This document shows positions 2,273-24,529 of a stretch of 61,855 bases of DNA, one piece after another; positions within the stretch are counted from its first letter, which is position 1, and every line of letters begins with the position of its first letter. The DNA is from Wickerhamiella versatilis (Eukaryota). Position numbers and translations under genes: made by a program. Under the pieces are notes generated by a model. It had not been told where the DNA came from, searched no databases, and saw only the letters and a list, made by a program, of their open reading frames with translations. Where the stretch lies: contig JAQOWU010000001.1 of NCBI GenBank assembly GCA_030867685.1, positions 1,054,001-1,115,855 on the forward strand, given 5' to 3'.

Positions 2273-4570
2273 ATGGAAAACAAAGGTATATCCACTTCCC
2301 AGGCTCTTCGCTATCTCAGGGAAGTGGGATATAATGAAGTTGATACGCAAGATGCATATCTGTTTACTAACGTATTGCATCGGCTGTGGGGCTTCAAACT
2401 CTGGATGCTCGAATTTGCATTGATCCTGGAAATAGTACAGAGAAAAAGGCCTGAAGCTATATCTATATTCATTTTTATCTCGTTCCAGACTGTTATAGAT
2501 GGCTTTGGGGATTGGTTGAGCCACGATCTTTCTAAATCTCTAAAAAGGAGACTAAAAGTTGCTGCTAGGATCAAGAGAGATGGTCGTTGGCAATTAATAC
2601 CTTCCAGGGTCATAGTTCCTGGAGACGTTATATCATTAAAATCTGGCGATATGGCTCCCGCAGACGTAATTCTCACTTCAGGAGCTGTTGAAGTCGATCA
2701 ATCAGCATTCACTGGTAATCCATCCCCAGTATATCGCATGTCTGGAAGCATCATACTGTCTAATACAATTATTGAACATGGAGAGGCAATTGGTACTATT
2801 CAAAATACTGGCCCAAGAACCCGTTTTGGCCAGGCTAGCGATATTGATAGCGTGCGAATTCATAATGCTCCAAATAATATTGAGAGATCAGTATCATCAG
2901 TGCAACAGATTCTTGCAGGGATAGTTGTGGTTACCTTGACATTCTTGGCCAGTGTGGGTTTTTGGTATGTTGGAGAAACTGTTGAGCCGATTCCGTATTT
3001 TTTGGTTCTGGCTTCTGTTATAGTACCTATTGATGTACCAGAATTATCTGAAAATCTCATCACAATTTTGACAAGGTGGTTAGCCAAAAATGGAGTTCTC
3101 CTTACCGATTCTTCAGCATTATATGGCATAGCGGCCATAGACACACTTTGCGTGGATCGATCCAGTATTTTAACCACACATTCATCGCTGGACAAGATTG
3201 TTACGTTTAATAATGCAAAAGAGGATGAAATCCTTGGATGGGCTGCATCAACCTGTGATATCACTTCCAGCAGTTCTTTGGAAAAAGCGGTATGCCGTGA
3301 AGTTTCCAAACGCAAAATAACAGCCCCTAAAGTTGCGAAACGCTTGAGTTTTGACCCCAGCAGCAGACAATCAGGTGCAATTTTGCAGTCAGGTACTAGG
3401 ATTGTATGGGGATCCCCATCATCTATCGCCTTTTTTGTTGGCCCGGAGGCGATTCCCGAGCTATTCTATGAGCTATTAGACAGTCTAAGCTTATATGGGT
3501 CGCAGGTTCTCGCTATTGCCATGCAGCATGAAGGACAGCGGTTTGCTATACAGGGATTAATCTCTTTTCATGCTCAAATTGAGGAGAACTCTCGTTCGTT
3601 AATAAGTTCACTTAAAGATCTTGGATTGAAAATTATAATGGTCACTGGTGATACCATGTTGGCGACGCGAGCAAATGTCAGCAAGACTAGTATTGGGTAC
3701 CGCGTTTCTGAGGGAAGGGAGGGTATAGCTGACCCTGAGTTATTCCAAGCATTTGCAGACCTCTATCCAGAGGAAAAGGTTGATATAATTAATTCTTTGA
3801 AGAGAAAGGGGCACATTGTTGGTGTAGTGGGACGTGGAATAAATGATGTGGCTGCTTTGAGCTCTGCAGATATCGGTATTGCAGTAGATTCTGCATCCAG
3901 CATAGCCAAATTGTTTTCAGGTTTTATTCTGGGTACCCCTGGACTGGCGGGAATATTGACTGCAGTTGAGTTAGGACGTAAGGTGTCCCAGCGATTCTCC
4001 ACGTATATTACATTAGAATTTGTTTCAGTGCTTCAGCTTTCTTTTTTCCTGACCACCTGCTTCATTGCTACTGGGCATATTTTGCTTCCCTTAGTTGGAC
4101 TGTCATTCATAGGTCTTACTGGATGCATTATGCGAGTTGCAATAGCTACAGATAACACATATGTACCCCGACTACCTCAAGAATGGCGGGTCCGCTTTGT
4201 TTTTCGTGTTAGTTCGTTACTTGCATTAGCATGGCTCGGACTTGGGTTATCGCTAGTGTACGTGGCGACGCAATATCTCAAACTTCCAATAGAGAGCATT
4301 CAGACATTGTGTTTTGTTTATTTTCTGTTCACGTATCTTTTAACAGTAGCCATTACTAGGACTCCGAGGATATCTTGGACTCTGCCCCCTGGTTATCTGC
4401 TTCTAATCACGATGCTATGCAGCGGCATTTTTGCGGTTTCTATCAGTTGTTTTGGCTGGGGTCTTAGACCCGCTGATTTCAGGATCACAATTTCACTTGT
4501 GGGTATTATTATGATTGTGGGTATTGTGCTAGATTGGATTAAATCAAGAGTTCTATCTAAATCGACCTGA
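2273..4570 (+). CDS. P-type ATPase-like protein, P3A (H+-efflux) type, with degenerate catalytic motifs
   Basis: VPGDVI, VDQSAFTGN (for TGES), CVDRSSILT (for CSDKTGTLT), MVTGD, PEEK, GRGIND (for GDGVND), IATDN, ~10 TM segments, short N-terminus. Confidence 0.85.
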   Translation: MENKGISTSQALRYLREVGYNEVDTQDAYLFTNVLHRLWGFKLWMLEFALILEIVQRKRPEAISIFIFISFQTVIDGFGDWLSHDLSKSLKRRLKVAARIKRDGRWQLIPSRVIVPGDVISLKSGDMAPADVILTSGAVEVDQSAFTGNPSPVYRMSGSIILSNTIIEHGEAIGTIQNTGPRTRFGQASDIDSVRIHNAPNNIERSVSSVQQILAGIVVVTLTFLASVGFWYVGETVEPIPYFLVLASVIVPIDVPELSENLITILTRWLAKNGVLLTDSSALYGIAAIDTLCVDRSSILTTHSSLDKIVTFNNAKEDEILGWAASTCDITSSSSLEKAVCREVSKRKITAPKVAKRLSFDPSSRQSGAILQSGTRIVWGSPSSIAFFVGPEAIPELFYELLDSLSLYGSQVLAIAMQHEGQRFAIQGLISFHAQIEENSRSLISSLKDLGLKIIMVTGDTMLATRANVSKTSIGYRVSEGREGIADPELFQAFADLYPEEKVDIINSLKRKGHIVGVVGRGINDVAALSSADIGIAVDSASSIAKLFSGFILGTPGLAGILTAVELGRKVSQRFSTYITLEFVSVLQLSFFLTTCFIATGHILLPLVGLSFIGLTGCIMRVAIATDNTYVPRLPQEWRVRFVFRVSSLLALAWLGLGLSLVYVATQYLKLPIESIQTLCFVYFLFTYLLTVAITRTPRISWTLPPGYLLLITMLCSGIFAVSISCFGWGLRPADFRITISLVGIIMIVGIVLDWIKSRVLSKST

Positions 4571-5624
4571 TATCATGTATTCCCTATCTCCACTCAGTGA
4601 TACAGGATAGCGTTAAAAACGCATTCCAGCTAATTATTCTAGGTAAATGTTCCATTGTCAGTTATCCAAGCTTTTACCAATATCACCTACAACTACTGTT
4701 ACATACCTTCGACAAGAACTAAGATATACCTCATTCGCCCAAGAAACACGATTATACCTAATCCAAATATACTAGGAAGGGATTAAAAGCCCTGTTCTTA
4801 TGTCGATTAGTTATTTGCCGGGGCTAAGAAAAAGTATGTAAGCGTCGGTAATCCCCTGATACAAAATTGAGTTAATCATGAGGTATACTGTAAATATGCT
4901 TTTATAAAAAAAGAGCTGTGAGCTCCCAGGGGTGCCTTTGTCAAAATATTTTCGAGTGTTATTGTTTGGATAGGTTCATTGGCTGCATGCCTTGTAATGT
5001 TTGCAAATTTTTTTTCGGATCTCTATGTGACCCAGATACCAGCGTGGGAAGTCATTGTTAGAGTATGCAAAAAAAAATAACACTTATATATTGGGACAGC
5101 AATTGACAATTACTCGAGAGCTCAAAAGCATCTGAAATCGATTACGATAGATTTTATTGAATACGGTTGTCACAGCAGCACTTAGGGCTAGGTTGAGCTG
5201 CACATGTGCAGAAATGTAACCATTATCATAACGACATATCTCCATTTATACAGTTCTAGAGCATTATTAATCATTATTTTATTTTATTTTTCTATTACCT
5301 GGTTCAAGAGAATACGATATTTTGCTCCAAAAAGCTCAACACCGTTCCAATTCCAATAATCTGCTTTATGCTTATGCAAGGACAAGTTAGTAGATTGCCG
5401 CGTACTTAGTCACTATATATATTGGAATAGTAGGGTTTATCCTCGCCAATCACGTATCTGCGCAAAGAAGTTGATAAAGACAGTAAAACTTGGTTATCAC
5501 AGATAAAAAGCAAAAGTATATCACTTCATAGAGGTTATATAGATTTAGGTCTTAACAGGCTCTTTGCATGACTTTATGTGAATGATCGATGCAATATAAA
5601 TGGTGCATAGCGCATGGTATAGGG

Positions 5625-5706: not shown

Positions 5707-7230
5707 ATGCTTTCTGCCGTGGTGTTTGCTGCTGGAGTTCTAGCTTATGGGCCTATGGCCCCTTACGACCAGGACTTCCTGGAAAATTATAATATCCTCA
5801 AGTATTTAGGAAATGGAGGACCGTATAATACTCGTCGTGGTCTCGGTATTAGCCTCGATGCGCCAGAAGGGTGCTCGGTTGACCAGGTAGCGATGGTGAT
5901 GCGTCACGGTGAGCGTTATCCAGATTTGGGTTCTGTAAAGTCATATGAAGAAGTTTGGGCCAAATTCGATCAGAAAAAGGGGACATACGTTAATGACCTC
6001 GAATTTGTCAACTACTGGGAACCATTCGTTTCTCATGATGATCCTTTTGTTTCACAAGAATCCACAGTTGGTCCCTATTCTGGTCTTCAGACTGGTTACC
6101 TTGCTGGAACAATCTATCGCCAACGGTATGGTCATCTTTGGGACAGTCAAACAATTACCCCTGTATTCACTTCAGGGAGTGAGCGTGTTGTTGATACGGC
6201 TCGCCGTTTTGCTGAAGGGTTTTTCGGCTACAATATTTCTGCGGCCGCGGTCAATATTGTTCCGGAGGTCGCAGACCAGGGTGCTAACTCTCTAGTACCT
6301 GTGTGCAACAATGCTTCCTATGAAAAATCAAACGAGTCTGCTTGTTCGGGCAAAGGTGATTACCCACCTTTATATGCCCTCGCGAAGAAGTGGAACCAGA
6401 AGTTTGGGCTCAACCTCACATGGTTTGATATTCAAACACTATGTTCAGCTGCTGGATTCGAGCTTCAGGTCCGTGGAGATTCCCCGTGGATTAAAGCTAT
6501 CCCTCAGGATGTTTGGATTGCTTATGAACACTATCTATCGGCGTCATTCTGGTGCACAAACGGCCCAGGGTCTCCTTCAGCTCTTGCACGTGGATCCAAC
6601 TGGGCTAATGCCACACGTCAACTATTCCTTGGTGGCCCTAGTAAAGGGCTTCCTCTTGCTTTCTCCTTCTCTCATGATACTGACATAGCCCCGATTAAGG
6701 CGTTTTTGGGACTTGACGCGGCGCCCCAAACCAACCTCAGCCAGGTCCAGGCGGATAGTGGCTATCATATTTCGGATGTTATGCCTATGGCAGGTCGTCT
6801 CGTTCTCGAGCGGCTCGTTTGCACCGGTGAAGAAACTGATAAGACTCGCTTTGCGAATGCTAACCCTCCTGCCTTCAATGGGTCGTATGTCAGCTCGAAT
6901 GTGTCACGTCCTTCCAATGCAACAGATGCTGGTGATGGAAAGAGTTACTACGTACGGGTAGTCTCTAATGATGCTGTTGTACCAATTAACGACTGCCTTT
7001 CGGGCCCTGGCTACTCCTGCCCTCTTCAGGAGTATAGTGATTACATCGACAGGCGCTTGGTTGGCAGAGAATACTCTCAGGTTTGCAATTTGACCGAGAG
7101 CGCACCAAAATATCTGGACTTTTTCTGGAATTATAATACCACTACCGATTTGAACCCCATTAATAACACAGTTGCGTACCAGGCCTACTTGGTTAACTAC
7201 CTTGGTCAAGCCATACCAAGGGATTCTTAG
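5707..7230 (+). CDS. Secreted histidine acid phosphatase / phytase (PHO5-like family)
   Basis: Signal peptide, RHGERYP catalytic motif, FSHD, many N-x-S/T sequons, C-terminal VRVVSNDAVVP..C..GPGYSCPL. Confidence 0.95.
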   Translation: MLSAVVFAAGVLAYGPMAPYDQDFLENYNILKYLGNGGPYNTRRGLGISLDAPEGCSVDQVAMVMRHGERYPDLGSVKSYEEVWAKFDQKKGTYVNDLEFVNYWEPFVSHDDPFVSQESTVGPYSGLQTGYLAGTIYRQRYGHLWDSQTITPVFTSGSERVVDTARRFAEGFFGYNISAAAVNIVPEVADQGANSLVPVCNNASYEKSNESACSGKGDYPPLYALAKKWNQKFGLNLTWFDIQTLCSAAGFELQVRGDSPWIKAIPQDVWIAYEHYLSASFWCTNGPGSPSALARGSNWANATRQLFLGGPSKGLPLAFSFSHDTDIAPIKAFLGLDAAPQTNLSQVQADSGYHISDVMPMAGRLVLERLVCTGEETDKTRFANANPPAFNGSYVSSNVSRPSNATDAGDGKSYYVRVVSNDAVVPINDCLSGPGYSCPLQEYSDYIDRRLVGREYSQVCNLTESAPKYLDFFWNYNTTTDLNPINNTVAYQAYLVNYLGQAIPRDS

Positions 7231-7417
7231 AAAACATCCCCTAGACTAGTCGTAATATACCTTTGTGAAAATTATTGTAAGCAATGAATGTGTATTTTTA
7301 TCTTTACGGGGAAAATGACAAGACTCTCCATTATCAAGCTATTCATTCATACCTTAAATCGGTAGGTAGCTACTTAATGTCATTTTGACGATGTGAGATA
7401 TTTCACTTCTGAAATAA

Positions 7418-7420
<3 letters not shown>

Positions 7421-7450
<30 letters not shown>
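7421..7450. repeat. (TC)15 microsatellite
   Basis: Read directly from sequence. Confidence 0.95.
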
Positions 7451-7452
<2 letters not shown>

Positions 7453-8069
7453 ATTATATTGAATATTAAGTATATTTATCCCACTTAACTCTTTTCTTTG
7501 TGACCCATGGCTCCTTCAGCCATGCAAAATAGCCCAATCTAGTTGGGCAAAGCAAAATAGCCTACTTCTTTGATAATTACTTGGAGCAATTGACTGTGGT
7601 TCTGACAGCGTATGTTACACTAAATTATTTGGTTGCGTGAATGAGAATGGCGCTAGTTGTGGTGCAGTCCTGGACCTTCGGCATGGACTGCTGTCTAATG
7701 CAAACATTTATCTACTGAAATGGAGTTATTTCATCGTATATTGATTGCAATATTCTCTCATATGACTTTTAGCACCAGTTAATCAGTCCGTTAACGGTTG
7801 AACGGGAAAGATACTCCTGTTTATGGGGTTGCTTTGTCATAATATACTCTGAAAGGAGGTGGTTTATTCAAAGCAAACGTTTGGGGACCTACTACGTTTC
7901 CAAGAATGCTTTAGTGTTTTCTAATAAAATTGTGGCTCTTGATTATACAGATAATGTCAACCTTGAGGCTGAGTAAATTGTTAGAGGAATGTCGTGATCA
8001 GCTTACTCAGTATCCCTGCTGCGTCGTCGGAGACAAACTTTATCAACTACTTTTGTCGGTGCCGCTCAA

Positions 8070-10064
8070 ATGGCAGAGCAGACCTTGGAAAAAAGTAGGC
8101 AAAAGAGAAATCGTGCTTCGCTAGCCTGTGATAAGTGTCGCGAAAGAAAAGTGCGCTGTGACTCTGCTCGCCCCAGGTGCAACCAATGTTGTCGGTCTGG
8201 GTTCTCCTGCACTTACAAAGTGAATCAGGGCACGGTAAAGCATCCTTCAACTCACAAACGTACAGAAAGACCTGATATTTACACCCGTGTTCAGCGGCTC
8301 GAACACTTAGTTGACGATATTATGCAGAACTCAAACATGGGGTCTACAGCAGTTTCTGGCTCTCTAGAAAGAGATTCAAACCAGCTCGAAGAATCAAACA
8401 GACCTTTATTTGGAGATTCAACTGTGAATGACCAAATAAAAGATATGAGAGCTCTCGAATTCCAACTCACAGTAGAAGGGAGAGATCACAGGCCCCCACT
8501 CTACAGCTACTCGATTCTGGGAATGTTGGCGACAGCGCAGAATCTTCAATTAATTGGAAATAGAATCGGTCAGCCTGATATGCCTCAAAAACTTATGTCC
8601 AGCATTCAAAGAAGCCACAGAGCGCACGAGGATCGAAAAAAGGCTTTGTTTCGGCAGCAACCAGCTGAACATTCATTGCTAGATGCTGATTTGAAATCAT
8701 TCTGCCAAAGACATTTTCATACACTTGGTTCCGACTACATATACGCTATCTTAACTCCAGAAGAATCTGATTATGCTTTCAGGAATGATTCTGGCATGTC
8801 AGCCATGATAGAACCCTTGGTTGTTCTCCTTGTGATATGTCACATGCGCTTTGTGGGAAATACCCATGGTATCTCAGAAGAACTGTTAGAACAACAGACG
8901 GTAGTCGCGTTTATGCATGCAACAAGACATTGGGCATTGAGCGGTCTTTTGCCATGTAGTTCCGGTCTATTCCGCTCACTTGTTTTTTATGCATTGGTCA
9001 CACTATTGTTCACGCCTCTATCACAGGACTTTCGGGCTCTGGCAGTTGCTCATTCTGCTGGGCATCAGTTGGGTGTAGATGATATGGAATACTGTCAGGC
9101 ACATGATCAGTCGGTCTGGAAACGAAATATAATTGTTTGGAATATCTTGAGAGAACTTGATAGTAACATATCTCTAAGTGCGTCCCAGCCACCAGGAGTT
9201 CGTGTTTACGAGAACTCAAAGATTTCACCAAATTTGTCATTAAGAAGCGACTCCGACCTAAAGATCCAGTTGTACCAATGGCGACTTTGTGAAATTTATG
9301 AAAAATGTTACAAAGAAGTGTTCAGCAGAGAAGCCCTCAAGAAATCCCATCGAAATATTTTCGAAAATATTCTTCGGCTAGATGGAGAATTGGAAGTTTG
9401 GCGATCAGGACTACCTGATAGTATGACTACTCCGTCTGAAGATGGAATTTTTTATCTGGATAACACATCTACCTTACCACTGCCACCTATAGCTTCTTTT
9501 ATGCTATTGACGATGAACATGTCCTTTTTTGCACTTAAGGCGCAGCTCCATATTTTACCAGCTTTTGTCCGATCTTTTTTGAAGAACGTTGATGACGATG
9601 TTCTCCTGTCAAAAGCCTCAAAATCACCGATAATAGCATCAGAAGCTGCTCGAGACATATTTCGTCTGGCATTGTCCACCAAAAAAGCCTTGAAACACTT
9701 GCCGTTGTACCAATTCTGTGTTATTACAGCTCATCAAGTACTCTCCCTTTATTGCATGATGTTTCCTGGGAACGACAGCTTTTATAGAGACCTTAGTCTA
9801 TTGCTTGACGGTCCACAAGCGAGGGGCGCCACTCCTATAGTATTTGATGAGACTTTTGAAACAGTGAACGAAATACTCTCGCGGTTTCGTGAAGATGTAG
9901 TTCAGCAGGGTCATTCTTCCGGTGGGGGTAATACGACTACCACACACCCCATGGGTAATCCCCTGTTAGCTGAGGGGCAACCACCTTCAAATCTCGCACC
10001 TTGGTTCGATATTGAGCCGACTACCTTTGATCAATTACCTGTGGACTCGTGTCAAGCAATGTGA
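8070..10064 (+). CDS. Zn(II)2Cys6 fungal transcription factor
   Basis: ACDKCRERKVRCDSARPRCNQCCRSGFSC, followed by a coiled coil (RVQRLEHLV) and a fungal TF middle region. Confidence 0.93.
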   Translation: MAEQTLEKSRQKRNRASLACDKCRERKVRCDSARPRCNQCCRSGFSCTYKVNQGTVKHPSTHKRTERPDIYTRVQRLEHLVDDIMQNSNMGSTAVSGSLERDSNQLEESNRPLFGDSTVNDQIKDMRALEFQLTVEGRDHRPPLYSYSILGMLATAQNLQLIGNRIGQPDMPQKLMSSIQRSHRAHEDRKKALFRQQPAEHSLLDADLKSFCQRHFHTLGSDYIYAILTPEESDYAFRNDSGMSAMIEPLVVLLVICHMRFVGNTHGISEELLEQQTVVAFMHATRHWALSGLLPCSSGLFRSLVFYALVTLLFTPLSQDFRALAVAHSAGHQLGVDDMEYCQAHDQSVWKRNIIVWNILRELDSNISLSASQPPGVRVYENSKISPNLSLRSDSDLKIQLYQWRLCEIYEKCYKEVFSREALKKSHRNIFENILRLDGELEVWRSGLPDSMTTPSEDGIFYLDNTSTLPLPPIASFMLLTMNMSFFALKAQLHILPAFVRSFLKNVDDDVLLSKASKSPIIASEAARDIFRLALSTKKALKHLPLYQFCVITAHQVLSLYCMMFPGNDSFYRDLSLLLDGPQARGATPIVFDETFETVNEILSRFREDVVQQGHSSGGGNTTTTHPMGNPLLAEGQPPSNLAPWFDIEPTTFDQLPVDSCQAM

Positions 10065-10904
10065 CTTCAAGATAAGAGACCTCAAGTTTACCTTGCTAAG
10101 CCAAGTTTTTTTTTCAAATTGTGTGTCGAAATATCGAGATCCACTCCACCACCTGAGATTGGTTGGATTGATGCTAAGAGATACATATTTATCAAATTAT
10201 AGAAATAGAAAGAGTCCTATTGAATTGGCATTTGAAATTTGATGAACCTCGAAAAGACTATTCCATCAGTTATTTTGTCATTAATAACTGGTGACCTGAC
10301 GCATCTCAACTATAGTAGAAACCATTTCTAATCCTTTTCTTGTGTCTATACCGGTTAACACCCACTGATAGTAAAAGAGTTACCATAACGCCAACCAGGA
10401 TGCCTACAACGAGTCCCGCCTTCTCTTCCTCTGCCCACTTTGGCCAGGACTCCACATATACAAGCTAATATTTTCAACATATGTCTTGGAAGCTTTTGTT
10501 GTTACACTCGCACTTCTGCTTGGCACAGGAGCACCCTTTCTTATCTGTGATAACGTTAAATAGCTAATATTTCATTACGCGCCTTGGTGGTCTTTGCTTG
10601 GTCAATTTGAAGCATCACCAGTGCTGTAGAACTGTAAAAAAAATACCCCAACTGAGAAAATGATGAGTCATAGAGATATGTATTATGTGTGTATAACCAA
10701 AGCGCATTTAACTTCCTCATTAGTCATTATGAACTTCATAACGTTTCACTGACTCGAGGAAAAATCTATCGACAAGTTAGACAGTCTGATCAGTGTATAT
10801 TAGTTACTTAGACCCCTTTTGCTACCCAAAAGTGTGAGGTGAGTAGATGTGACGCCTTTTTTGGTTGCAGATTAGCCTAGTGTTACGTCATAGCTCTCCT
10901 TGCG

Positions 10905-12890
10905 ATGAATGTCGGGAAATTGTTCGGGGAGCTTGAAGCCAGCTTGGATGTAGGGAAGCCTCAGGGTGGCTTCTTTACAAAGGGCGATGCTGTTAAAGGT
11001 ACTTTACACCTGAACGTGGCTAAAAAGGAACAAATCAAGAAGATAGAGATGTGTCTTCGATGCACCGAAGAATCAGTTGTGTTGAGGAAGGAGGATATGG
11101 ACAAGTTATCCAAGGGCACTCCCATAAAGAAGAACTCTTTGCAGTCACGTGCTACGGAGTCGAAAGTTCACTGGGAAAGTGTGCAGGTATTCATTGCAGA
11201 GGGAAAGAGTGATATTATACCGATACACGAGACAAGCAGAGGAGAATATACACATCAGTTTTCTTTTAACATACCAGAAAACCTGGACCTTATTCCGGGT
11301 AGTGCCATTATAAATGTATCCGACGGCCAAGAAATCGGCATTAAGTGGACTATAGAGGCTGTTGTTCACCGCCCAGGTCTTGCACCCAAGCGTAAAATCA
11401 CCACTATAATATCAGTTTTGAACGATGGGCCTGTCCTTCCAAAACACCAAGATAGAGCTTTCTTTACTGGCTCTAGATACGTGAGATCCTATAGACCGGG
11501 CGATTTGTCGGGCATTAGTGGAATACGCAAAATGATCGCGGGAAAAAATCGGGAGAAGGCATTAATGAGCTTCCGAGCTTCCTATCCAGCTACTATTTTA
11601 CCACAGATCCCTTTGAGGTGTCAAATTGGATTAACTTTAACTTCCAGTCATCCCGGACTGATATATTTGGATGACATTCATATTAATCTTATTCAGCACT
11701 GTTCTGCCCAGGCTAAGAATCAGAAGGCTGACTACTTCAAGAAGCATGAAATCGGCTGTATTACAGAGCATCGTATTCTCTATGAAAATTCTGTTGATTT
11801 CACGCCCAAGTTGGAGAAATGGGGTCTCAACGTACCCTTCCCGCCTAATTTTGAGACAAATATGCTGAAATGCTCCTACAAAATAGAGGTTGAAATGAAC
11901 TTCAAGTATCTTAATACCAAGAAAGGAAGGGAAATTGACTCCATTGAAACCCTTTCTTCGACAATTCCTGTGATTCTGGCATCACTTGTGGATTCAGCGA
12001 AAGTATACGAGGACACAAAGGAAAAGGAGCTGGTCGCGGCTCAAGTAATTCCCAAAACGCCTGACATTAGTATGGGACTCGACTTTAGATCTCAAAAAGG
12101 TGAAAATAAACTTTCATCATCAGAGGGTAAATCTACTCATAAAAGAAAACTAGAATTGTCACCTGCTGCACCAGTTGAAGCAGAAATCTCGATCACGCAG
12201 TCAAAAGAAGGCGAAACTGCGCTATTGCCTCAAATTAGTGCCAAAGAGAAAGTTATTTGCGAGGAAGAACTTAATGCTCCTTTGAGCTCCATATTGGAGT
12301 TGTTTGTGAATAATTCGTCTTCGTGGTACGAAAAATTTCTCACAGATGTTGAGCATAATACTGATTTGTCGTGTATCCCGAATTTCCAAAAGAATGATTC
12401 CGGAAGAGAAAATCGAGCCTACGAGTACACAAAGCATATGAATGCGTCCGTTGGGCCTAAGTCGACCAAGTGTATCTGTGTTGATGAGATAGAATCGTTC
12501 GAGCCTGATAAAAGTGTTGTCGTATTAACAACCACGAAGACTCCTGATGTCCCAAATGGGGATATTTTTACAACATTTACAAGACTTTGTGTGGCTCGTA
12601 GGGAGAACAATGGAACTAAAATTCGCATTTCTTCATGGTTAGAGTGGAAAGGGAAATCATGGCTGAAGTCAGCGATAGAAAAGGGTGCCGTAAAAGGTCA
12701 AATGGAACATTCGCTACTTTTCGTAAACCATCTTAAAGAATCAAACGGGGAGAAAGTCGTGGAGTCTCCTCAGCAATTGCGTATTTCAGAAAATGGCAGT
12801 TTCAATATTTATATTATTGCGTGTATCATTTCGGGTTTGGTGCTATTTGTATTATACTTGAATAATTATTGGGCACCATGGGCTAAGTAA
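10905..12890 (+). CDS. Arrestin-fold N-terminal region fused to a VASt/StARkin sterol-transfer-like domain with a C-terminal TM anchor
   Basis: N-term FTKGDAVKGTLHL..I..C.E and GEYTHQFSFNIP (arrestin_N pattern). C-term TPDVPNGDIFTT..RLC..LEWKGKSWLKSAIEKG (Lam/Ysp2 VASt pattern). Hydrophobic tail. Confidence 0.7.
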   Translation: MNVGKLFGELEASLDVGKPQGGFFTKGDAVKGTLHLNVAKKEQIKKIEMCLRCTEESVVLRKEDMDKLSKGTPIKKNSLQSRATESKVHWESVQVFIAEGKSDIIPIHETSRGEYTHQFSFNIPENLDLIPGSAIINVSDGQEIGIKWTIEAVVHRPGLAPKRKITTIISVLNDGPVLPKHQDRAFFTGSRYVRSYRPGDLSGISGIRKMIAGKNREKALMSFRASYPATILPQIPLRCQIGLTLTSSHPGLIYLDDIHINLIQHCSAQAKNQKADYFKKHEIGCITEHRILYENSVDFTPKLEKWGLNVPFPPNFETNMLKCSYKIEVEMNFKYLNTKKGREIDSIETLSSTIPVILASLVDSAKVYEDTKEKELVAAQVIPKTPDISMGLDFRSQKGENKLSSSEGKSTHKRKLELSPAAPVEAEISITQSKEGETALLPQISAKEKVICEEELNAPLSSILELFVNNSSSWYEKFLTDVEHNTDLSCIPNFQKNDSGRENRAYEYTKHMNASVGPKSTKCICVDEIESFEPDKSVVVLTTTKTPDVPNGDIFTTFTRLCVARRENNGTKIRISSWLEWKGKSWLKSAIEKGAVKGQMEHSLLFVNHLKESNGEKVVESPQQLRISENGSFNIYIIACIISGLVLFVLYLNNYWAPWAK

Positions 12891-13333
12891 TACCACACAT
12901 GATATCTACTTAGTAATCGGGTGGTCATTGCTAGAGATCCCAATTTCTTGACGTAAAACGTAGCAGCAGATTTTATATTGAGTAATATTTTATAGCTATA
13001 CAAATACACGGTATTTCGCTGCATAGTGCTTCAGCTGCATACCCTTGATAAAGTTCGACCTACGTCCGGCACCGTACTAGTGACATACCTGATTTCCCCC
13101 ATATAAAATGTCAGGATTCGTTACAATTAGCCCTGCAGGCCACGGTAAAGGAAGAGAAATCGCGCATCTATCCATCAGTAAACGTAATATTTAGTAATTC
13201 CTAGGCAGCAATATATTTCGACCATGAATACCTACTAATCACATTGCCATAACCAGAATTATGGCAATCATTCTCTAAAAAAAATCGTGCTTCACTATAG
13301 AGCTTTTTATGCATTTCGGGTCCCCTTAATGTT

Positions 13334-14284
13334 TCAACAAAGAGGATTCAGCCATCTCTCTACCGGATCTTCAGGCTGAAAAGTCGAAAAGTAGTGTGGA
13401 TCAGACTTCATAATGGCCAAGAGGTCCTCAGCTATATGGGCTCCCTCCCTGGTAGGGTTTACCACTGCCAATACGTTATGATCGGGTACGCACCAGTCTG
13501 GAAGGATTCTAGTAAGCCTGCCAGCTTTAATCTCTTCGGAAACTGTCCATTCAGTGCCTTGGATAATGCCTTGACCTTCTATGGCCCACTTGTACACAAC
13601 ATCGACGTCATTGCAAACAAAACTGGGACAAAACCTTGCCTCGAAACTTTTTCCGCTTTGGCCTTCCAATCGCCAACATGCATTCGCGACATCTCTGCTT
13701 TCCTGAACAACACCACAAGAATGCTTCCATAACTGCTCAGGATGACTAGGATTTTCACATTTCGAAAGATAACTGGGGGAAGCGCAAAGAAATCTGTGAT
13801 TGGGGCCAAGGTTAACCTGCTTTTTGTCGGTCCTGCGAGCCTCTCCGAGATAGATTATCAAGTCCCAGTCGGGTTTTGAGAGATGTTCACATGGATTTTC
13901 AAGAAGCACGAGTTGTATTTTAAGACTAGGCCTCATTTTTCTCAAAGATATAACCTTTTTAGCCACGAAATTTTGTCCAAATCCCAGTGGTGCCAGAATT
14001 CGCAATGTTTCGTCTCCTCCACCACGAACACTATTGAGCTCGCAAGTAATACCTGCGATCATAGCTAGCACAGCAGCTCCTCGCGAGGCTAAAAGTACCC
14101 CTGCTTCAGTGAGAGTGTATCCTGTCTGACGTCGCTTAACTAATTGCAACTGTAGCTTGCGCTCCAATTGTGTTAGTCTCTGGGAAACTGCGGGGGCTGA
14201 TACATGCAGAGCATGAGACACTTCTACAAATGTCTCTTGCAGGGCCACAGCCTGGAAGAATTTCATGTCGGAAGAATCCAGCAT
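13334..14284 (-). CDS. Bacterial-type LysR-family transcriptional regulator (CrgA-like)
   Basis: HTH F..VS.ALHVSAPAVSQRLTQLERKL..QLV.R....TLTEAG. Substrate-binding domain motifs PLGFG, CASPSYL, ND...WA.EGQGI, AGRL.RILPDW. ATG at 14284 (the ORF track starts at GTG 14329). Confidence 0.9.
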   Translation of the reverse strand: MLDSSDMKFFQAVALQETFVEVSHALHVSAPAVSQRLTQLERKLQLQLVKRRQTGYTLTEAGVLLASRGAAVLAMIAGITCELNSVRGGGDETLRILAPLGFGQNFVAKKVISLRKMRPSLKIQLVLLENPCEHLSKPDWDLIIYLGEARRTDKKQVNLGPNHRFLCASPSYLSKCENPSHPEQLWKHSCGVVQESRDVANACWRLEGQSGKSFEARFCPSFVCNDVDVVYKWAIEGQGIIQGTEWTVSEEIKAGRLTRILPDWCVPDHNVLAVVNPTREGAHIAEDLLAIMKSDPHYFSTFQPEDPVERWLNPLC

Positions 14285-15350
14285 TCTCAACAAGAAATAC
14301 ACGAAAAGCAGTTTGTTACTAATACTCACCGGGAGACCTTTTAGCTCCCAAAGGGATGGTTCTAGATAACGTCAGTCCCAATTGAAACCCACTGATTGCG
14401 CCACAAAAACTTAGTTATTCAAGCATACCATACATAATTGTTACTATCCTCAACATATTACTTGCAAGCTCGACCTACTTTGCATTGTTTTAGTATCACC
14501 ATATGGAACACAAAGGTCTCTTGGTCTCCAGCTACGTGTTGCTTGTCACATCAATACGTATTTATTCGCCATCATCGATTTTATTGCTTTTCTGAGATTT
14601 TATATGTAGCCTTGCGGACTCTCTGCGTTATATAAGCTTTAAATTGTCGATGTGGTCCAGTGCTTCGTCAACAAGTAGCTGATATAATTGGCTAAATATA
14701 GGCTTACTGGGCTACTGAAAGATTGATATCACTCTTATAGATATAACTGCAAACATTAGGATGACAATTATTAATGTATTCAAGTTTCTCTATTTCAAAA
14801 GGGTGTCCTGCACAAATTATCCACTGTAGCAAGTTCCACAATAATAAGATCAATATCTATCTTGCTATTTCTGTTTAAGTGGATGCATAGTTCATGCTAC
14901 GGGCTATCCTGCCTTTCTATGTCTTCTCAAATTATCTCTTGTCATCAGGGTCAGGGCTAGACAAACACTATGTGAGCAAACGCTTAACTTGCAGTTAATA
15001 TTAATAATATGCAGAAAGTTTTGCCACGATCTAGGTTTCCAGGCGACCAATGGACGGAACTGTAAATAAGTATTTACATAAAAAATTCAACTTAAAGAGG
15101 TATGCCAAGGACAGAGCCGAGACTATTTATTATGCTTCACTGATGAACCAGCAACGATTTGCCTTAACAACAAATATTTATGTGCTATGAATATAACAGG
15201 TTTGTTTTATTTATATCTACTCTTATCTCAAGTTTTCTCTGGAAGCAGTGGCAAAATGTTGGAGAACTCCGATGTTATATAATCTCGCAAGTTTTCCCTC
15301 ATGGTATATAAGCCGCAGCATGACGCACCACTCTCCACAGATTGCAAAAG

Positions 15351-15974
15351 ATGAAAATCACGAATCAAAGAGAGGTTGAAGAATATTCTAAGGCCTTAAT
15401 GTATGGCGGATTGAAAGGTGTAGCGATTGGTGCAGTGGGATCGCTGGGTGCTTTTTTTTATCTAAGGCGACGTCTCGGTAGCGCACTGACTGGAGCAAAG
15501 AGTAGTGGTCTTGTTAAAAACCTTATTTACATCTCTCCTCCAGTGTTTGCGGGTATTACATACGCTGAAGTTGAATCACGAAAGTTTGAAGCTCGTCAGC
15601 GCGAAAAGCAATACAGCATGGATCCGGTTCAGGAGAAAAGTGGCGATCCTGCAACAGAATCATGGGATCGCATTGTGAACTTCTTTGGAGAACACAAGTA
15701 TAAATTTGTTGTGGGTGGATGGGCTGCCTCTATGGCTGGATCATTTTACTTGGTGAATCGTAATAAATACATGACAAAGGCTCAGAAGGTTGTTCAAGCT
15801 CGTGTTTATGCCCAGGGTCTCACAGTAGCACTGCTACTAGCTACCGTTTTGTTATCTGTCGAGCCAAAGAAAAGTAAAGAAGAACAGATTGCGTCTGCAA
15901 AAGAAGAGGCAGCTAAAAGTTGGGAACGAGATATTCAGTACGTAGAACAAAGCAATCATAGCATGGGATCATAG
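15351..15974 (+). CDS. RCF2: Respiratory supercomplex factor 2 (HIG1-domain protein)
   Basis: HKYKFVVGGWAASM..S and MTKAQKVVQARVYAQGLTV HIG1 signature. TATATAA just upstream. Confidence 0.9.
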   Translation: MKITNQREVEEYSKALMYGGLKGVAIGAVGSLGAFFYLRRRLGSALTGAKSSGLVKNLIYISPPVFAGITYAEVESRKFEARQREKQYSMDPVQEKSGDPATESWDRIVNFFGEHKYKFVVGGWAASMAGSFYLVNRNKYMTKAQKVVQARVYAQGLTVALLLATVLLSVEPKKSKEEQIASAKEEAAKSWERDIQYVEQSNHSMGS

Positions 15975-16439
15975 AAAGGGAAGCTCTTTAACAGGCTCTC
16001 TTTTCAATCCTGAAAGCTATGACTTGATTTTCCGTTCTGCTTGTGCGAGGAAGCTTGTGCAAATGAGGTGGCCCACTTATGGTAAAGCCCGTTTGAAACC
16101 TATAATGTATGGATTGATTTGCTTGTAATTGTAGACAATCATAGGACGTATTGGCATTAATTTGATGAAATTACAGGTCTAAGAGACATATAAGCTAGAT
16201 AGCTACTTAAGTTTATAATGAGATCTTGACCAAGGAGGTATGTGATATGAGGGGACAAGATGGCTCGGTGCAAGTGCACCCTCCTGTCGATCTTCGCAGT
16301 GAAGTTATTTAGTCCGAAATATATATTGCTAACTGGAGATCTACATATTATAAAGATAGGATGACATCTCAAGATAGTTGAATACCAAGACAATATAATC
16401 CTAGTCAATGAAATTATTCAAGTGCTTGTCTCATCGAGT

Positions 16440-17510
16440 CTACAATTTGATATCATCACGGGTCCAACCAACAGGATGTTCTATTTGTCCTTCCAGTGTT
16501 TTCGTGGGCCTAGGTATTGACTTAGGAAGCCGCGAGTAGTCCAAAACATATGGATTAGGATCCACTTTTTGCAAGAGGTTTCCAAAAGTATGATTTACTT
16601 CTCGATGTTTGCTCTCATCTGCTCGCACATAGTAAATGAGATCCTTAACAGTGGCATTGTCTGGCATACCCCAATATTTCTTAGCAATGTCAGGGGCAGG
16701 TGTGTTAGCAAAATCAGTAATCTTGCCTTTTTCCATGTCCTCAATGCACCTAGTGTAAGTGACAACTGCTTCTTCTTCTAGGTACCCCACAAATCTGTGG
16801 CAGACTCGTGGCCATATGAGATAACACACAAAGAACATATTGAAAAAAACACCTTGGGCTCCAAGAACCATGAGACGCATCAACATACCTGGATCCTTTA
16901 GCTTGATAAATGTGAGGAGATGCATTCGCTCATTATAGGCTTCCTCCAGCAGGCTTTCAATCCAGGCCCGATCTCGCTTAAAAAGCCTTAGGCTTTGAAG
17001 ATGTCTTACCATTCCACCCACCATACCTGGAACGCCCGCCACACTTTCTAGAAATACGAATCTTGTAAGCCATTGGTTTCTGTCCATGTTGTATTTCGGG
17101 TCGAATTCATGAGCTTGGTCAGGAGGCGGATGCTTATACCCAGTGAACAAATCAAAAGTCGCTCTTATAAATTGAAGCGTTCGCCAAGCAACTCTATCTG
17201 ACATTTTCTTCGGTTGTAGATGAGATACTTGAACTTGGTGCATTTGTTCCACATCAAAACCTGGATGCTTCCATCCGCTCGATAGATGATACTCATCAGC
17301 TTTGAACAAATCCCTCGCAGATGAGCGTGGCAAATCTATTTGTGACAACTCCCTTGGATGCTCGTTCTCTCCTGTGTTGGGAGACTGAACTGGTTTACTT
17401 GGGCTCATGGTGCTGGCCGCATAGCGAGCTGGATATGTTGAAAAGTGTGATGCTGAGGCCAACGGGAGGCAAGGATTAACAACGCGGAGATTACTGGTGA
17501 ATAGTTTCAT
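16440..17510 (-). CDS. AOX1: Mitochondrial alternative oxidase
   Basis: FLESVAGVPGM, EAYNERMHL, GYLEEEA, RADESKH di-iron motifs and an N-terminal presequence. ATG at 17510. Confidence 0.97.
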   Translation of the reverse strand: MKLFTSNLRVVNPCLPLASASHFSTYPARYAASTMSPSKPVQSPNTGENEHPRELSQIDLPRSSARDLFKADEYHLSSGWKHPGFDVEQMHQVQVSHLQPKKMSDRVAWRTLQFIRATFDLFTGYKHPPPDQAHEFDPKYNMDRNQWLTRFVFLESVAGVPGMVGGMVRHLQSLRLFKRDRAWIESLLEEAYNERMHLLTFIKLKDPGMLMRLMVLGAQGVFFNMFFVCYLIWPRVCHRFVGYLEEEAVVTYTRCIEDMEKGKITDFANTPAPDIAKKYWGMPDNATVKDLIYYVRADESKHREVNHTFGNLLQKVDPNPYVLDYSRLPKSIPRPTKTLEGQIEHPVGWTRDDIKL

Positions 17511-19004
17511 GCGGTTCAAATTACGGGAAGCGGCCTCTATTATAGCTGTAACTCACAAATTTTATTTGTCATACTATTTCGGGGGGGTGATACAAATGGG
17601 CGCGAATAACGAGCTCTTACACGGCAATCTCACTCGGAGTTCTTTCAAGAAGTGTATTTAAGTGTCGAGAACACCATATCAGTACCTATTGCCCCTTGGC
17701 AGCCAGGTAAACTTACTGTCGGAGATAGGGTACGGTAACCCCCAAGCCTTAATGCAATGAAAAGGTGCAGCATATTGACGTATGCACCGAGGTGGGCCAT
17801 CTTGCATTATCGGATGATTTCTCACCTATATGATGAAAATAGCACGTTAGTACTTGAACACCCTTTAGGTAGCAACGCCTTTATCCTTTTTACACTATAG
17901 AACGCGATTCATCTTGGTGGCAAAAAACTGGCCCTTAATCTAGCTGACAAATAAATCTCTCGTTTTATGCTCAATGCATTAATGTCATATGAGAAATTCT
18001 ACCAGAGCAACCGCACGTTGGCTATGACTTATATGAGACGCCCTCGGGTAGGAATATAGGAATATCCACGTGTAGCGATATTAAAGCTACGCTTTAGATT
18101 ATACTCATACATATACTTATGTTAGAACTTGACCCAACCCTAAAAACCTATATTTACTATCTTCTCTCCAGGAAAGTCGGCGGTATTTTGCGCTATAATA
18201 CCCTCTTATCTTGACACACTATTAGTATGTAGCGTCCACACTATCCAAATTTGTTATATTTGAGGGTCTGCGGTACTATTTTCGAAGAGTAGTACCCAAC
18301 GCACTTGTTAGCTACAAACTATCAACATCTAACAGTTAATCCCCAGTCTCCCTTCCTGATAAAAGACCACATTAGCAACATATTTCACTCTAGTCGAGGA
18401 GTTCCATTTCTACTATTGCTTTTATCACAGTTTGCATTGTCCTACTACAACCCCTTCCAATCAGGCATACTGCAAAGTTCTCATGAAAATTCGTTCGACT
18501 GCTTACCACTCTTACCAGTTATCTGATTTCAATCAGTATCTCACTGAGGGTTGCCTCCTCAACCGATATTTTTTCCCTGCTGTTACGATACTACGACCCC
18601 ACATAGCAGGGTAAGGTAAACTAAACGTGATGCGCGCCCGCAGTTCATGTCTGCTTAATATTATTAAATATCCGACGATAAGTCAGCACCAATGAGTCAA
18701 ATGCGAATGCCGCGATAGGGCAATTTACGCGATTGTCAGCAAAGAAAAAAGGAAAAATTAAGACAGGCCAATCCAAGAAGTACTTTTAATCTTGGATTGT
18801 GGAGATATTGACACCGAATACAGATGTTATGATACTGTGTGAAATTGCTTTCAGAAAGTATCTGACACTGGCATCAGGGTTGCCTGTATGTCCATATACA
18901 CTATAGTTATATTATATTATGTTATTATGTTATTTTATGTCATTTCATGTTATGTTTGATTCGTATTCCCAGCTACGAGCCACGGTGCTATAGCTAAGAT
19001 GATA

Positions 19005-22301: not shown

Positions 22302-22720
22302 ATATACTAGTATAACGGTATGCTGTCGCCGACTCTTATAGTTTCTATAGCATATCTCTACCCTTACCTGAATATGGGATACCCGTACCCAGACAGGTTA
22401 GTAATAGCAATGTTTTAATCCTTGCGGTATATAAAATTATCGATATCAGTTAGATAACAGGTCTCTTCTTTCCAAGTACGAGTACAGCGTTACTGTAAAT
22501 TTCTTTCTACGTCACATTTCAGGCATTCAGCCGTATAGAGCGTACTAACTGTCTCATTTCTAACTGTTTTATTATTAATTAGTTTTATCCCATGAGGGAC
22601 CATCCCCACATTTACCCCTGCTGAGGAACCACCTGTACCCCTACCACATGAGAAGCCACTGATTTTGTCGTGTTACGAGTTAGTATTTTTCATTTTTTTA
22701 CCAGAACCTCTAAAAGACAT

Positions 22721-22785
22721 AAAAAAAATTATGCGGGGAATCGGTGCTGGGTTAGGGCAATCGGTGCTGGAAGTGGGCAATCGGT
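22721..22785. promoter_or_regulatory. Mig1/CreA-like site (AT-rich flank + GCGGGG) overlapping a 3x 20-bp-period repeat GGG(C/G)AATCGGT, upstream of ENA
   Basis: aaaaaaaattatGCGGGGaatcggtgctgg..gggcaatcggtgctgg..gggcaatcggt. Confidence 0.45.
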
Positions 22786-23854
22786 AACACCTGTTCCGAG
22801 CCGAAGTTAAAAATAACATCTCAATGACCTAGTATACCGTGCTCTGCTAGCTCGTGTCCTTAACGACAAATGCAGAGGGTAGCTCCGTGATTAGATTCCC
22901 AATCCTAGTAGACTCAGGTACGCATTTTCTTCTTAATCCTCAGACTTTTCATCTCAGGATCCGAGAAGCAATAGAACTTCAAGGGGCAAGAAGAGGCTTA
23001 CTGGAATGGAGGGAATTGGTGGGATTGAAACAGAAGGAAAGAAATGACGTCTGGCTCAGCACATGAGAGGTAGAGTAAACTTGTAATGCTCAAGTGGCAG
23101 TGAACTCCGATAATCTTCAGGTTTTCATGCCACATAAACAAGGCGTTTGTCGTCCTAAGCAGGGTCTCAAGCTAAGTATAATTTACGGTCTTAGCATTCC
23201 TTGGTCTCCAACTGTTATTTCGGTGTATCTTGGTGACTACCATGGTGGCAGGACAAAATTCAAATGAGGAATTCAAACCCCATGCAAAAATGCTTGTAAA
23301 GGCTTTAAATACTTGCCACCATTGACGTTTAATACTGTGTGCGACCCTGGCTCCGTAGTCCATCATCTTAGCTTAAAAATCATTTTAGCATCGAATGTAT
23401 TAATAATAAAGGTAAGGGCGGCAACGGCGGGGCGGCGAAGTTCCCGAGGTCCCTGCGTACCTTCAGCTCACCTTCCGAACAATGATTTGTGGGGTTAAAT
23501 TAGTCTTTCTCGGTTTTTGGATTTTTTGAATAGGAATTTTTAGCCTCGGCACCCTTGGAAGTGGTCCATTGAACATGCAGTCTCGAGAGGCTAGTCCTAG
23601 TCCCATTACGTCCCGCTATGTGCGACGCATAGGCCTAGTGGAGTCAGAGGCAATGCGGAGGGTTGTTGACTAATAATATGCAATGCTATTATTGTGGACG
23701 CATGGCACTACTTTAGATCCTGCTTCTCATTAAGTTTGAGAGGTTCGGTACGAAAAGGTGGGTTATCAAAAGGTACTGCAATGTGGCGTTTCAATTGTAA
23801 TGCCAATGTACGATGATATTTTAAGCGTAAAATAAAATCGGATGTATCCTAGAT

Positions 23855-24292
23855 TTACTGATATACGACAAAGCGTGCCCATTTCATGAAGTAATCCCCA
23901 CCTTTGATCTTTCTTACCATAAATCCAAAAGGGGTGAGACAGGACATCTGTCCTGTACCTGTCTCTGGACCTATTGGTACTAGCGTTATCCAGCCGCCCT
24001 TGCTATGGGTTTTGCTTGGGGACTTACCAGACAATTCAGACTTAGCATTTGACGATGCCACGGATGCTTGTTAAACCGCCCGGATAAACAGCTTCTGCTT
24101 GTGCTGTGTCACATCGCCTGGAGCATATATCCTGTCGGCAACCTTCATATGCTTATCGACCTTCACGAATCCATCTTCATCCAAATACGATTTGGGGACG
24201 AAATCGCTGTTAGCCTTAACACCAATAGATAGAATGTATAAATCAGTATCAATGGTCTTACCTGAGTCGTCGGATGTTAACCAATCTATCAT
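23855..24292 (-). pseudogene. 3' remnant of an AIF/AMID-like pyridine nucleotide-disulfide oxidoreductase
   Basis: GKTIDTDL..IGVKANSDF..LDEDGFVKVD..IYAPGDV, then an in-frame TAA (24071-24073), continuing QAS.ASSN..LVPIGP..G.GQ..IKGGDYF. The N-terminal half is absent. Confidence 0.75.
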
Positions 24293-24529
24293 GTTGGAGT
24301 CATTAATTTAGTGTTGCAGTATCGCACTAGTATACGTTCTGATTTTGCGTCAGTCAAACGCATGGTACCCAATTTATTCTACTTACTTGCCCTTTAAACA
24401 CCATCTCGAGGTTTCAGGGAGTCTCAAATTGCTTATTGTTCATTTGTAATATTACAAATCTTAGTGTTGTATTTTTCAGGAGGAAGGTTATATAAGAGTG
24501 GTTATAGTTATCGTCAGACCAGAACCTAG

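Follow-up and report, generated by a model that had tools for sequence, protein, structure and literature searches.

Bacterial regulators of the LysR type (LysR-type transcriptional regulators, LTTRs) have already been made to work in the nucleus of a yeast: BenM, FdeR and other bacterial activators are ligand-dependent activators in engineered Saccharomyces cerevisiae without any sigma factor, and Table 1 of the review concerned (PMC5812511) gives "NO" for both a nuclear localisation signal and an activation domain in BenM and FdeR. In those biosensors the operator was placed by design in a yeast promoter, whereas the case that we describe here would be one of natural transfer. It is a complete LTTR gene (13334..14284, minus strand) standing among yeast genes in a stretch of 61,855 nucleotides of Wickerhamiella versatilis (contig JAQOWU010000001.1, positions 1,054,001 to 1,115,855), which we call the window. 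Our reading, to which we give a probability of about one half, is that a bacterial LTTR was acquired by a small group of Wickerhamiella-type yeasts, is now adapted to its host and kept there, and likely acts as a one-component switch. The initial annotation of this gene had started from the view that LTTRs act through bacterial RNA polymerase; the behaviour of BenM and FdeR in S. cerevisiae contradicts such a dependence.

The setting, too, is less isolated than the initial annotation supposed. The Wickerhamiella/Starmerella clade is a known hotspot of bacterial gene transfer, and six acquired bacterial gene-specific transcription activators have been counted in W. versatilis (PMC13376923). The same yeast carries in the same chromosome region another bacterial LTTR gene, the CbbR-like gene 04050, whose expression is also low. 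It differs from the gene studied here, whose counterpart in strain JCM 5958 is gene 04042: 04050 belongs to PTHR30126, stands beside acquired genes and is labelled "HGT Bacteria" (HGT, horizontal gene transfer), while 04042 belongs to PTHR30537, is an orphan and is labelled "Native" (PMC13376923). The genes phnW, phnX and the CbbR-like LysR gene (04048-04050) lie side by side, all labelled "HGT Bacteria", six to eight genes from 04042 (PMC13376923); they look like a bacterial aminoethylphosphonate operon acquired with its regulator. LysR is not named once in the main text of that paper, and the bacterial origin of 04042 seems to have gone unrecognised there, the gene being "Native" in both tables. 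The literature that we searched does not describe any LTTR occurring naturally in the nucleus of a yeast. What is new is an orphan bacterial LTTR, apparently under constraint; acquired regulators of the Wickerhamiella/Starmerella clade were already on record.

Among bacterial systems, the closest sequences (36-39% identity) are proteobacterial LTTRs transcribed divergently from a DSD1-type gene (Dickeya oryzae L001, Roseobacter L004, Bradyrhizobium L016 and L018). They have the length, the N-terminus and the domain order of the yeast protein. They differ in carrying a conserved dyad, ATTAAG-N6-CTTAAT, whose end falls on the start codon of the regulator, and a divergent partner gene, the yeast gene having neither; moreover the tail of the yeast protein is longer than theirs, and the support for Dickeya as its sister is 92/83 only. 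In an NCBIfam scan, 45 LTTR models match at E <= 0.01. The best is TtdR (NF007315, PTHR30537), the activator of L-tartrate utilisation in E. coli, and PTHR30537 is also the label of the W. versatilis counterpart (PMC13376923). However, the match to NF007315 scores 131.2 bits, far short of the 398 that mark an equivalog; the 25 NCBIfam families listed all stay below their cutoffs, and no tartrate genes lie near the gene in the window. This means that the yeast protein is an LTTR but not an ortholog of TtdR, or of any named regulator. Its best solved full-length matches, both by sequence and by fold, are AphB of Vibrio and CrgA of Neisseria (phmmer E 2e-20; Foldseek E 1e-24 to 1e-21; target-normalised TM of the regulatory domains 0.79-0.86). 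The regulatory domain matches those of AphB, CrgA and YfbA with a target-normalised TM of 0.78-0.86, and the top Foldseek matches are all LTTRs. AphB and CrgA differ from the yeast protein in being bacterial regulators of virulence and stress that act on bacterial RNA polymerase, and their identity to it is 21-23%.

The gene itself is intact. An unbroken open reading frame (ORF) runs from ATG to stop over 316 codons plus the stop, and its first methionine aligns with the start of the bacterial relatives in the protein alignment, so that the protein has no N-terminal extension or targeting peptide. The Pfam domain HTH_1 (PF00126), a winged helix-turn-helix (HTH), covers residues 6-62 (14099..14269, minus strand; E 1.2e-13, 51.2 bits against a cutoff of 26.6), and the effector domain LysR_substrate (PF03466) covers residues 88-293 (13406..14023, minus strand; E 9e-20, 71.4 bits against a cutoff of 28). 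The AlphaFold2 model, made with 18 sequences in its input, has a mean pLDDT (the confidence score of the model) of 85.2. It places helices at residues 4-15, 19-26 and 30-44 and wing strands at 49-58, then a long linker helix at residues 60-86 (14027..14107, minus strand), and it builds the effector domain as two alternating beta/alpha lobes with a pLDDT mostly of 85-95. The last 23 residues or so are the sole low-confidence part of the model (55-59). They belong to a C-terminal tail which the alignment shows to be specific to the yeasts (residues 294-316; 13337..13405, minus strand): it exceeds the bacterial counterparts by about 10 residues, has an acidic and aromatic character, and contains a motif, EDPVE[RK]WLNP, common to the window protein and to an ortholog of 74% identity. 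Over these 23 residues the yeast protein has 15 identities with that ortholog as against 2-4 with the bacterial sequences. Four residues of the recognition helix, Q35, R36, L37 and E41, do not vary among the 18 yeast and bacterial sequences of the alignment. The protein has what characterises an LTTR, namely HTH_1, LysR_substrate, a long linker helix and a total of about 300 residues, and we could confirm the claim of the initial annotation that 13334-14284 encodes an intact, full-length LTTR with both domains.

Where this gene comes from was examined by searches and by phylogeny. A word-indexed protein search gave 32 matches, two of them close (96% and 74% identity) and 30 at no more than 38% identity. 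An exhaustive phmmer search gave 15,347 matches at E <= 1e-3 and 39 at E <= 1e-30; the best 150 of the 15,347 comprise one cluster at 96%, all the others being at 39% identity or less. No relative between 40% and 74% identity was found in these two large searches, in whose libraries few entries carry names; a distant fungal copy remains conceivable for that reason. We also scanned one genome per prokaryotic species with an alignment of nine sequences as query, and obtained 50 loci of 30-40% identity, all bacterial (by title 49 proteobacterial and one from Gemmatimonadaceae). The named relatives outside the small yeast clade are thus all bacterial, and nearly all belong to Pseudomonadota.

A first tree was built from 84 rows: three yeast sequences, 47 LTTRs derived from the loci (the partial loci L045, L048 and L050 being left out) and 34 of the 44 representatives P0036-P0079, those of 290-320 aa. 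In it the yeast rows come out as a single clade (SH-aLRT 100) whose stem measures 1.74 substitutions per site, inside a group of seven rows (support 96) that holds the Dickeya and Roseobacter LTTRs. A second tree, from a careful search on 34 hand-chosen rows, again gives the yeast clade (100/100), with a stem of about 2.0 and with Dickeya as the nearest row (split support 92/83). Each of the three trees that were made has Dickeya nearest to the yeasts, while the Roseobacter sequence changes place between them. As expected of a xenolog, the yeast clade therefore nests among LTTRs of Pseudomonadota, and the phylogeny bears out the horizontal acquisition that the initial annotation had proposed. 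The comparisons support the view that an ancestor of a small Wickerhamiella-type yeast group took the gene from a proteobacterium. Judging by the trees, the donor is a member of Pseudomonadota, with no finer placement; long-branch effects are possible.

The published tables imply something else, a native yeast gene inherited vertically: both supplementary tables of PMC13376923 say "Native", and the host-like composition described below agrees with this. We consider such a history very improbable. It would have to account for the empty interval between 40% and 74% identity, for 50 genome loci which are all bacterial, for two domains that are both bacterial families and for the nesting of the yeast clade within Pseudomonadota. 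As to the label, the bacterial cohort of the paper came from an earlier alien-index screen, which can miss genes (PMC13376923).

The converse explanation, that the gene is a piece of bacterial DNA brought in by contamination or by a chimeric assembly, was the refutation that the initial annotation had itself foreseen, and it can be dismissed with almost complete assurance. The GC content at third codon positions (GC3) of the gene is 0.418, within the range of the 27 ORFs of the window, and its codon usage ranks fourth of the 27 in host-likeness; in eight bacterial relatives GC3 goes from 0.22 to 0.89. Yeast genes lie on both sides within the one 62-kb window. We searched public runs for a stretch of 3.1 kb including both flanks and found it in runs from 11 studies; seven rows from four studies contain at least 57% of its words, 11 rows that were possible sources of the window having been left out. 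An isolate contig of 21,227 nt spans 10900-17600 with no difference, and may be the source of the window itself. In an independent metagenome from a food fermentation (X13), one contig (13048-13645) crosses the 3' boundary of the ORF and another (14035-15100) crosses the 5' boundary; the X13 contigs tile the stretch with overlaps of 13-22 nt between neighbours, no single one joining the ORF to a flanking gene. In a relative diverged by about 3-4% (X19), the LysR gene stands beside the same arrestin/VASt gene, on two contigs which overlap by 10 nt. An identical protein (from Met7 onward) is recorded on a contig of up to 400,565 nt. Finally, the annotation of a separately assembled genome has the same gene order (PMC13376923). 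The gene is integrated among native genes and has the composition of the host, as a xenolog should: it is an ordinary yeast chromosomal gene and not contamination. That it is both a real chromosomal gene and of bacterial origin is, in our opinion, close to certain.

Is the gene maintained? The window, the 96% cluster (four contigs) and the 74% cluster (two contigs) all have an unbroken frame. We simulated neutral evolution starting from the coding sequence of the window, with substitutions only and in 1000 runs: the frame stayed free of stops in 1% of the runs at 74% identity and in 43% at 96% identity, and insertions and deletions would lower both figures. The HTH is the part best conserved with the 74% ortholog (52 of 65 positions identical), as compared with 17/25 for the linker (66-90), 149/203 for the effector domain and 15/23 for the tail. 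Where the yeast proteins differ from each other, columns without variation in three bacterial relatives are affected less often (26/148) than the other columns (51/154; Fisher p 0.0023). The best relatives of the LysR protein are at 96% and 74%, those of the neighbouring alternative oxidase (AOX) at 91% and 74%, and those of the neighbouring arrestin/VASt protein at 92% and 52%. If these relatives pair up by organism, as we infer from the equal lengths of their longest contigs (66,335 for P0185 and P0187; 10,029 for P0035 and P0188), the LysR protein would be at least as conserved as its two neighbours. At the protein level, purifying selection in the lineages with intact frames appears highly probable and would be tightest on the HTH, and the retention of both domains noted by the initial annotation finds support in the simulation, in the conservation of the HTH and in the distribution of the differences.

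Published data for JCM 5958 suggest that the gene is also transcribed. In transcripts per million (TPM), gene 04042 reads 2.28, 3.42 and 4.17 in the three YNB samples and 0.96, 1.06 and 1.58 in the three YPD samples; it is not differentially expressed, and it is marked "Expressed" on YPD agar (PMC13376923, Supplementary Data 6). In YNB1 and YNB2 its values of 2.3 and 3.4 compare with 0 and 0.05 for AOX and with 0.9 and 0.65 for RCF2 (PMC13376923). We conclude that expression of the JCM 5958 counterpart is low but present under the conditions tested. None of the public runs containing our stretch is recorded as RNA. In the sample YNB3, many genes for which the five others give 0 have 3-5 TPM, some of them more (PMC13376923), a pattern which suggests DNA carry-over and makes this replicate unreliable.

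An idea of what the regulator did before its transfer can be drawn from the bacterial loci. We scanned the ORFs lying just upstream of the regulator in 34 of the 50. Eight are DSD1-type proteins resembling D-serine dehydratase (Ala_racemase_N, six of them also with D-ser_dehydrat), 12 are S41 peptidases, five are aldehyde dehydrogenases, four are transporters of the major facilitator superfamily (MFS), one is an ABC ATPase and three have no family; the remaining one, an M81 peptidase, is about 1.5 kb off and not adjacent. In some 10 further Bradyrhizobium loci the ORF listing has an ORF of 384-386 aa at the same upstream place. Regulators with a DSD-type partner are found at four separate places in the tree, the nearest neighbours of the yeast clade among them, so that this is probably the older arrangement. 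By visual reading, the dyad ATTAAG-N6-CTTAAT ends on the start codon of the regulator in all 11 bacterial intergenic regions that were inspected, its right half being degenerate in two; it lies at about 4985-5002 in the loci L001-L050 (3529-3546 in L016). Of the 50 loci, 22 have the exact core TTAAG-N6-CTTAA, and in 21 of them the last base of the core is also the first of the start codon. We predict that this dyad is probably the autoregulatory operator of the LTTR subfamily.

How might such a protein act in a yeast? A small molecule would bind to the effector domain and would shift the contact of the oligomer with a dyad site. One or a few yeast promoters would have such a site, and their transcription by RNA polymerase II would then be raised or blocked, by analogy with heterologous LTTRs in engineered S. 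cerevisiae. The targets would lie outside the window, or else a changed operator would be used. The acidic and aromatic tail could serve as an activation or interaction motif, which is speculation. A ligand-responsive role on DNA seems the most likely one because LysR activators work unaided in engineered yeast, and we judge the chances about even that the protein is still a DNA-binding, ligand-responsive regulator.

Several observations weigh against this reading. The yeast protein keeps only 77 of the 148 columns that are invariant in the bacteria, and the stem branch is very long, so that the activity may have changed. A contig of X19 lacks one base in a run of five A (13956..13960, minus strand, codons 109-110), which would shift the frame. 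Acquired genes in the "end" domains of the chromosomes show relaxed selection, with a higher dN/dS (PMC13376923). Expression is very low, and YNB3, the sample with the highest value, gives about 3-5 TPM on otherwise silent genes; in addition these data come from JCM 5958, whose gene list differs from ours at three places, so that 04042 may be a close ortholog. There is no exact copy of TTAAG-N6-CTTAA in the 62-kb window, and the one site with a single mismatch (27114) compares with 3.1 expected; within the window, the gene therefore has neither the dyad operator (T-N11-A type) in its own promoter nor the divergent target which go with an LTTR, although a changed operator elsewhere is conceivable. 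No relic of a partner gene was found either. In tblastn searches with eight bacterial flanking proteins (three DSD-like partners, one S41 peptidase, one MFS transporter, one aldehyde dehydrogenase and two further neighbours) the matches near the LysR gene were at chance level, and the sole match above chance was that of the MFS query to a yeast MFS gene at 47350-47760. As the divergent neighbour is RCF2-like, the initial annotation was right in seeing no divergent bacterial target gene beside the regulator.

Some of these facts would fit a passenger on its way out, that is, a gene from a bacterial fragment which was once useful and is now a near-silent orphan drifting in a low-expression region at the chromosome end. 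The TPM of only 1-4 in a region rich in silent and acquired genes, the higher dN/dS of acquired genes in "end" domains (PMC13376923), the deletion in X19 and the loss of operator and partner gene would all be expected of it. The deletion is seen in the single covering contig, of depth 16.8, in which 51 other letters differ over 1241 nt (about 4%); it is either a loss specific to this lineage or an error. Drift is rather improbable, however, in view of the intact frames in the window and in six further contigs, when neutral drift to 74% identity leaves 1% of the frames open with insertions and deletions uncounted, and of differences which avoid the conserved columns in a protein as conserved as AOX. 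We observed in addition that X19 has an insertion of 17 nt at 14357 and is unlike the window beyond 14539, where the sequence has a loose end; the upstream region may be rearranged in this lineage.

The protein could also have been kept for its ligand-binding and oligomerising domain, as a metabolite sensor, a buffer or a partner of other proteins, having given up specific binding to DNA. The disappearance of the ancestral operator and partner gene, the change of about half of the columns invariant in bacteria along a very long stem, and the new conserved tail, which could be a protein-interaction motif, speak for such a role. A pure ligand binder, however, would be expected to let its HTH decay or vanish, while this HTH is the part best conserved between the yeast orthologs, with its four recognition-helix residues invariant in 18 sequences. 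We find this explanation unlikely, if somewhat less so than simple drift.

A more specific form of the switch that we favour would tie it to its ancestral partner. The LTTR would have entered the yeast together with a DSD1-type gene from which a rearrangement later separated it, would still sense a ligand of the D-amino-acid type and would control DSD1-type or other acquired genes through RNA polymerase II, the tail being a newly evolved activation or interaction motif. W. versatilis does have a DSD1-type D-serine dehydratase gene (00116), labelled "HGT Bacteria" and expressed at 25-58 TPM (PMC13376923), which is a candidate target in so far as the same type of gene pairs with the nearest bacterial LTTRs. 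The link is weakened by W. domercqiae, which has a DSD1-type gene and no PTHR30537 entry among the table rows listed; among these rows PTHR30537 occurs once (PMC13376923). The paper PMC5169069 makes no mention of serine dehydratase, DSD1 or Saccharomycotina. We regard this scenario as a long shot.

The LysR gene should have its yeast promoter in the AT-rich spacer of 1066 nt (14285..15350) that separates it from the divergent RCF2-like gene. The initial annotation had noticed here a stretch GTGAGT...TTGAG which could be an acquired 5'-UTR intron. The stretch exists (14286..14329, minus strand, 44 nt, from GTGAGT at 14329-14324 to TTGAG at 14290-14286) and ends one base before the ATG. As a splice signal it does not stand out: GTGAGT occurs 24 times in the window for 25.45 expected, the sole branch-like heptamer (TAGTAAC) begins 2 nt past the 5' hexamer, and the stretch closes with GAG. 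The usual 3' end of a yeast intron is CAG or TAG. With such a 3' end and such a branch heptamer it makes a poor intron, and on these motifs we rejected it as a probable chance occurrence.

On both sides the neighbours are eukaryotic, as had been stated initially; Pfam identifies a Zn2Cys6 factor (8070-10064), a protein with arrestin N and C domains and a VASt domain (10905..12890, plus strand), a HIG1/RCF2-like gene (15351..15974, plus strand; HIG_1_N) and AOX (16440..17510, minus strand; E 2.7e-102). The LysR gene and the arrestin/VASt gene are convergent across the 3' intergenic spacer at 12891..13333 (delimited from the ORF list). The closest named relatives of the AOX, at 64% identity or less, are from Trichomonascus, Sugiyamaella, Magnusiomyces, Blastobotrys and Geotrichum (Dipodascales yeasts), as would be expected if the host too belongs to Dipodascales. 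In the rest of the window we found P-type ATPases, MFS transporters, TauD dioxygenases, luciferase-like and flavin monooxygenases, an aldo-keto reductase, an arylsulfotransferase-like gene and a second Zn2Cys6 factor.

In the annotation of W. versatilis JCM 5958 the order is ENA, AOX, RCF2, the TtdR-related HTH gene and a PTHR23319 gene, with RCF2 at the position of our gene at 15351..15974 (PMC13376923). About 17 genes of the window match the JCM 5958 genes 04021-04045 by function and order, gene lists and not sequences being compared. Judged by this order, the host would be W. versatilis or a very close relative. The lists differ at three places. No Rieske ORF (04038) is present at 22302-24529, a gap between the aldo-keto reductase and ENA genes in which the longest wholly internal open frame has 78 aa; and two extra genes at 5707-10064, a histidine phosphatase and the Zn2Cys6 factor, have no counterpart between 04043 and 04044. 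These are either differences between strains or species or gaps of annotation.

Finally we must mention a few features of the remaining window. The interval 24530-58285 is dense in genes for the scavenging of sulfur and xenobiotics: the aldo-keto reductase, a DUF4334/GXWXG gene, at least five MFS transporters, two luciferase-like monooxygenases, two full TauD genes and one fragment, a flavin monooxygenase (FMO) and the arylsulfotransferase-like gene. Their JCM 5958 counterparts are near silent, with TPM mostly below 1, which is consistent with the low-expression "end" domain of the paper; among them 04037, 04036 and 04021 are labelled as coming from bacteria, and 04032 and 04029 from Pezizomycotina (PMC13376923). 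Two ORFs are fusions, one of Oxidored_FMN (old yellow enzyme type) and a luciferase-like monooxygenase (30663-33071), the other of Oxidored_FMN and an FMO-like monooxygenase (48667-51072). The TauD fragment (174 aa, E 3.7e-4, below the cutoff) and an MFS gene split over two adjoining ORFs (54561-55085, 55273-56334, 56383-56979) are likely to be pseudogenes or intron-bearing genes. For the ORFs at 250-1188 (312 aa) and 51599-52156 (185 aa) Pfam gives no match, even with the threshold relaxed to E 0.1; the latter, with an unusually high GC3 of 0.605, departs further from host codon usage than any other ORF of the window.

Accounts of gene transfer from bacteria into eukaryotes deal almost always with enzymes and transporters, which are self-sufficient in their action, and regulators are thought to be poor transferees, dependent as they are on the transcription machinery of the donor. 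Here a complete bacterial regulator has been kept whole in yeast lineages as distant from one another as their alternative oxidases are, and its DNA-binding part is the most conserved. The "Native" label on this gene means that alien-index screens can miss old and fully adapted transfers. Should the protein indeed regulate genes of the yeast, nature would have produced a counterpart of the synthetic LTTR biosensors in yeast, and the case would show how a foreign switch is wired into RNA polymerase II promoters. W. versatilis, a budding yeast from food fermentations, may thus offer in this LysR gene a natural case of a bacterial regulator used in a eukaryotic cell.

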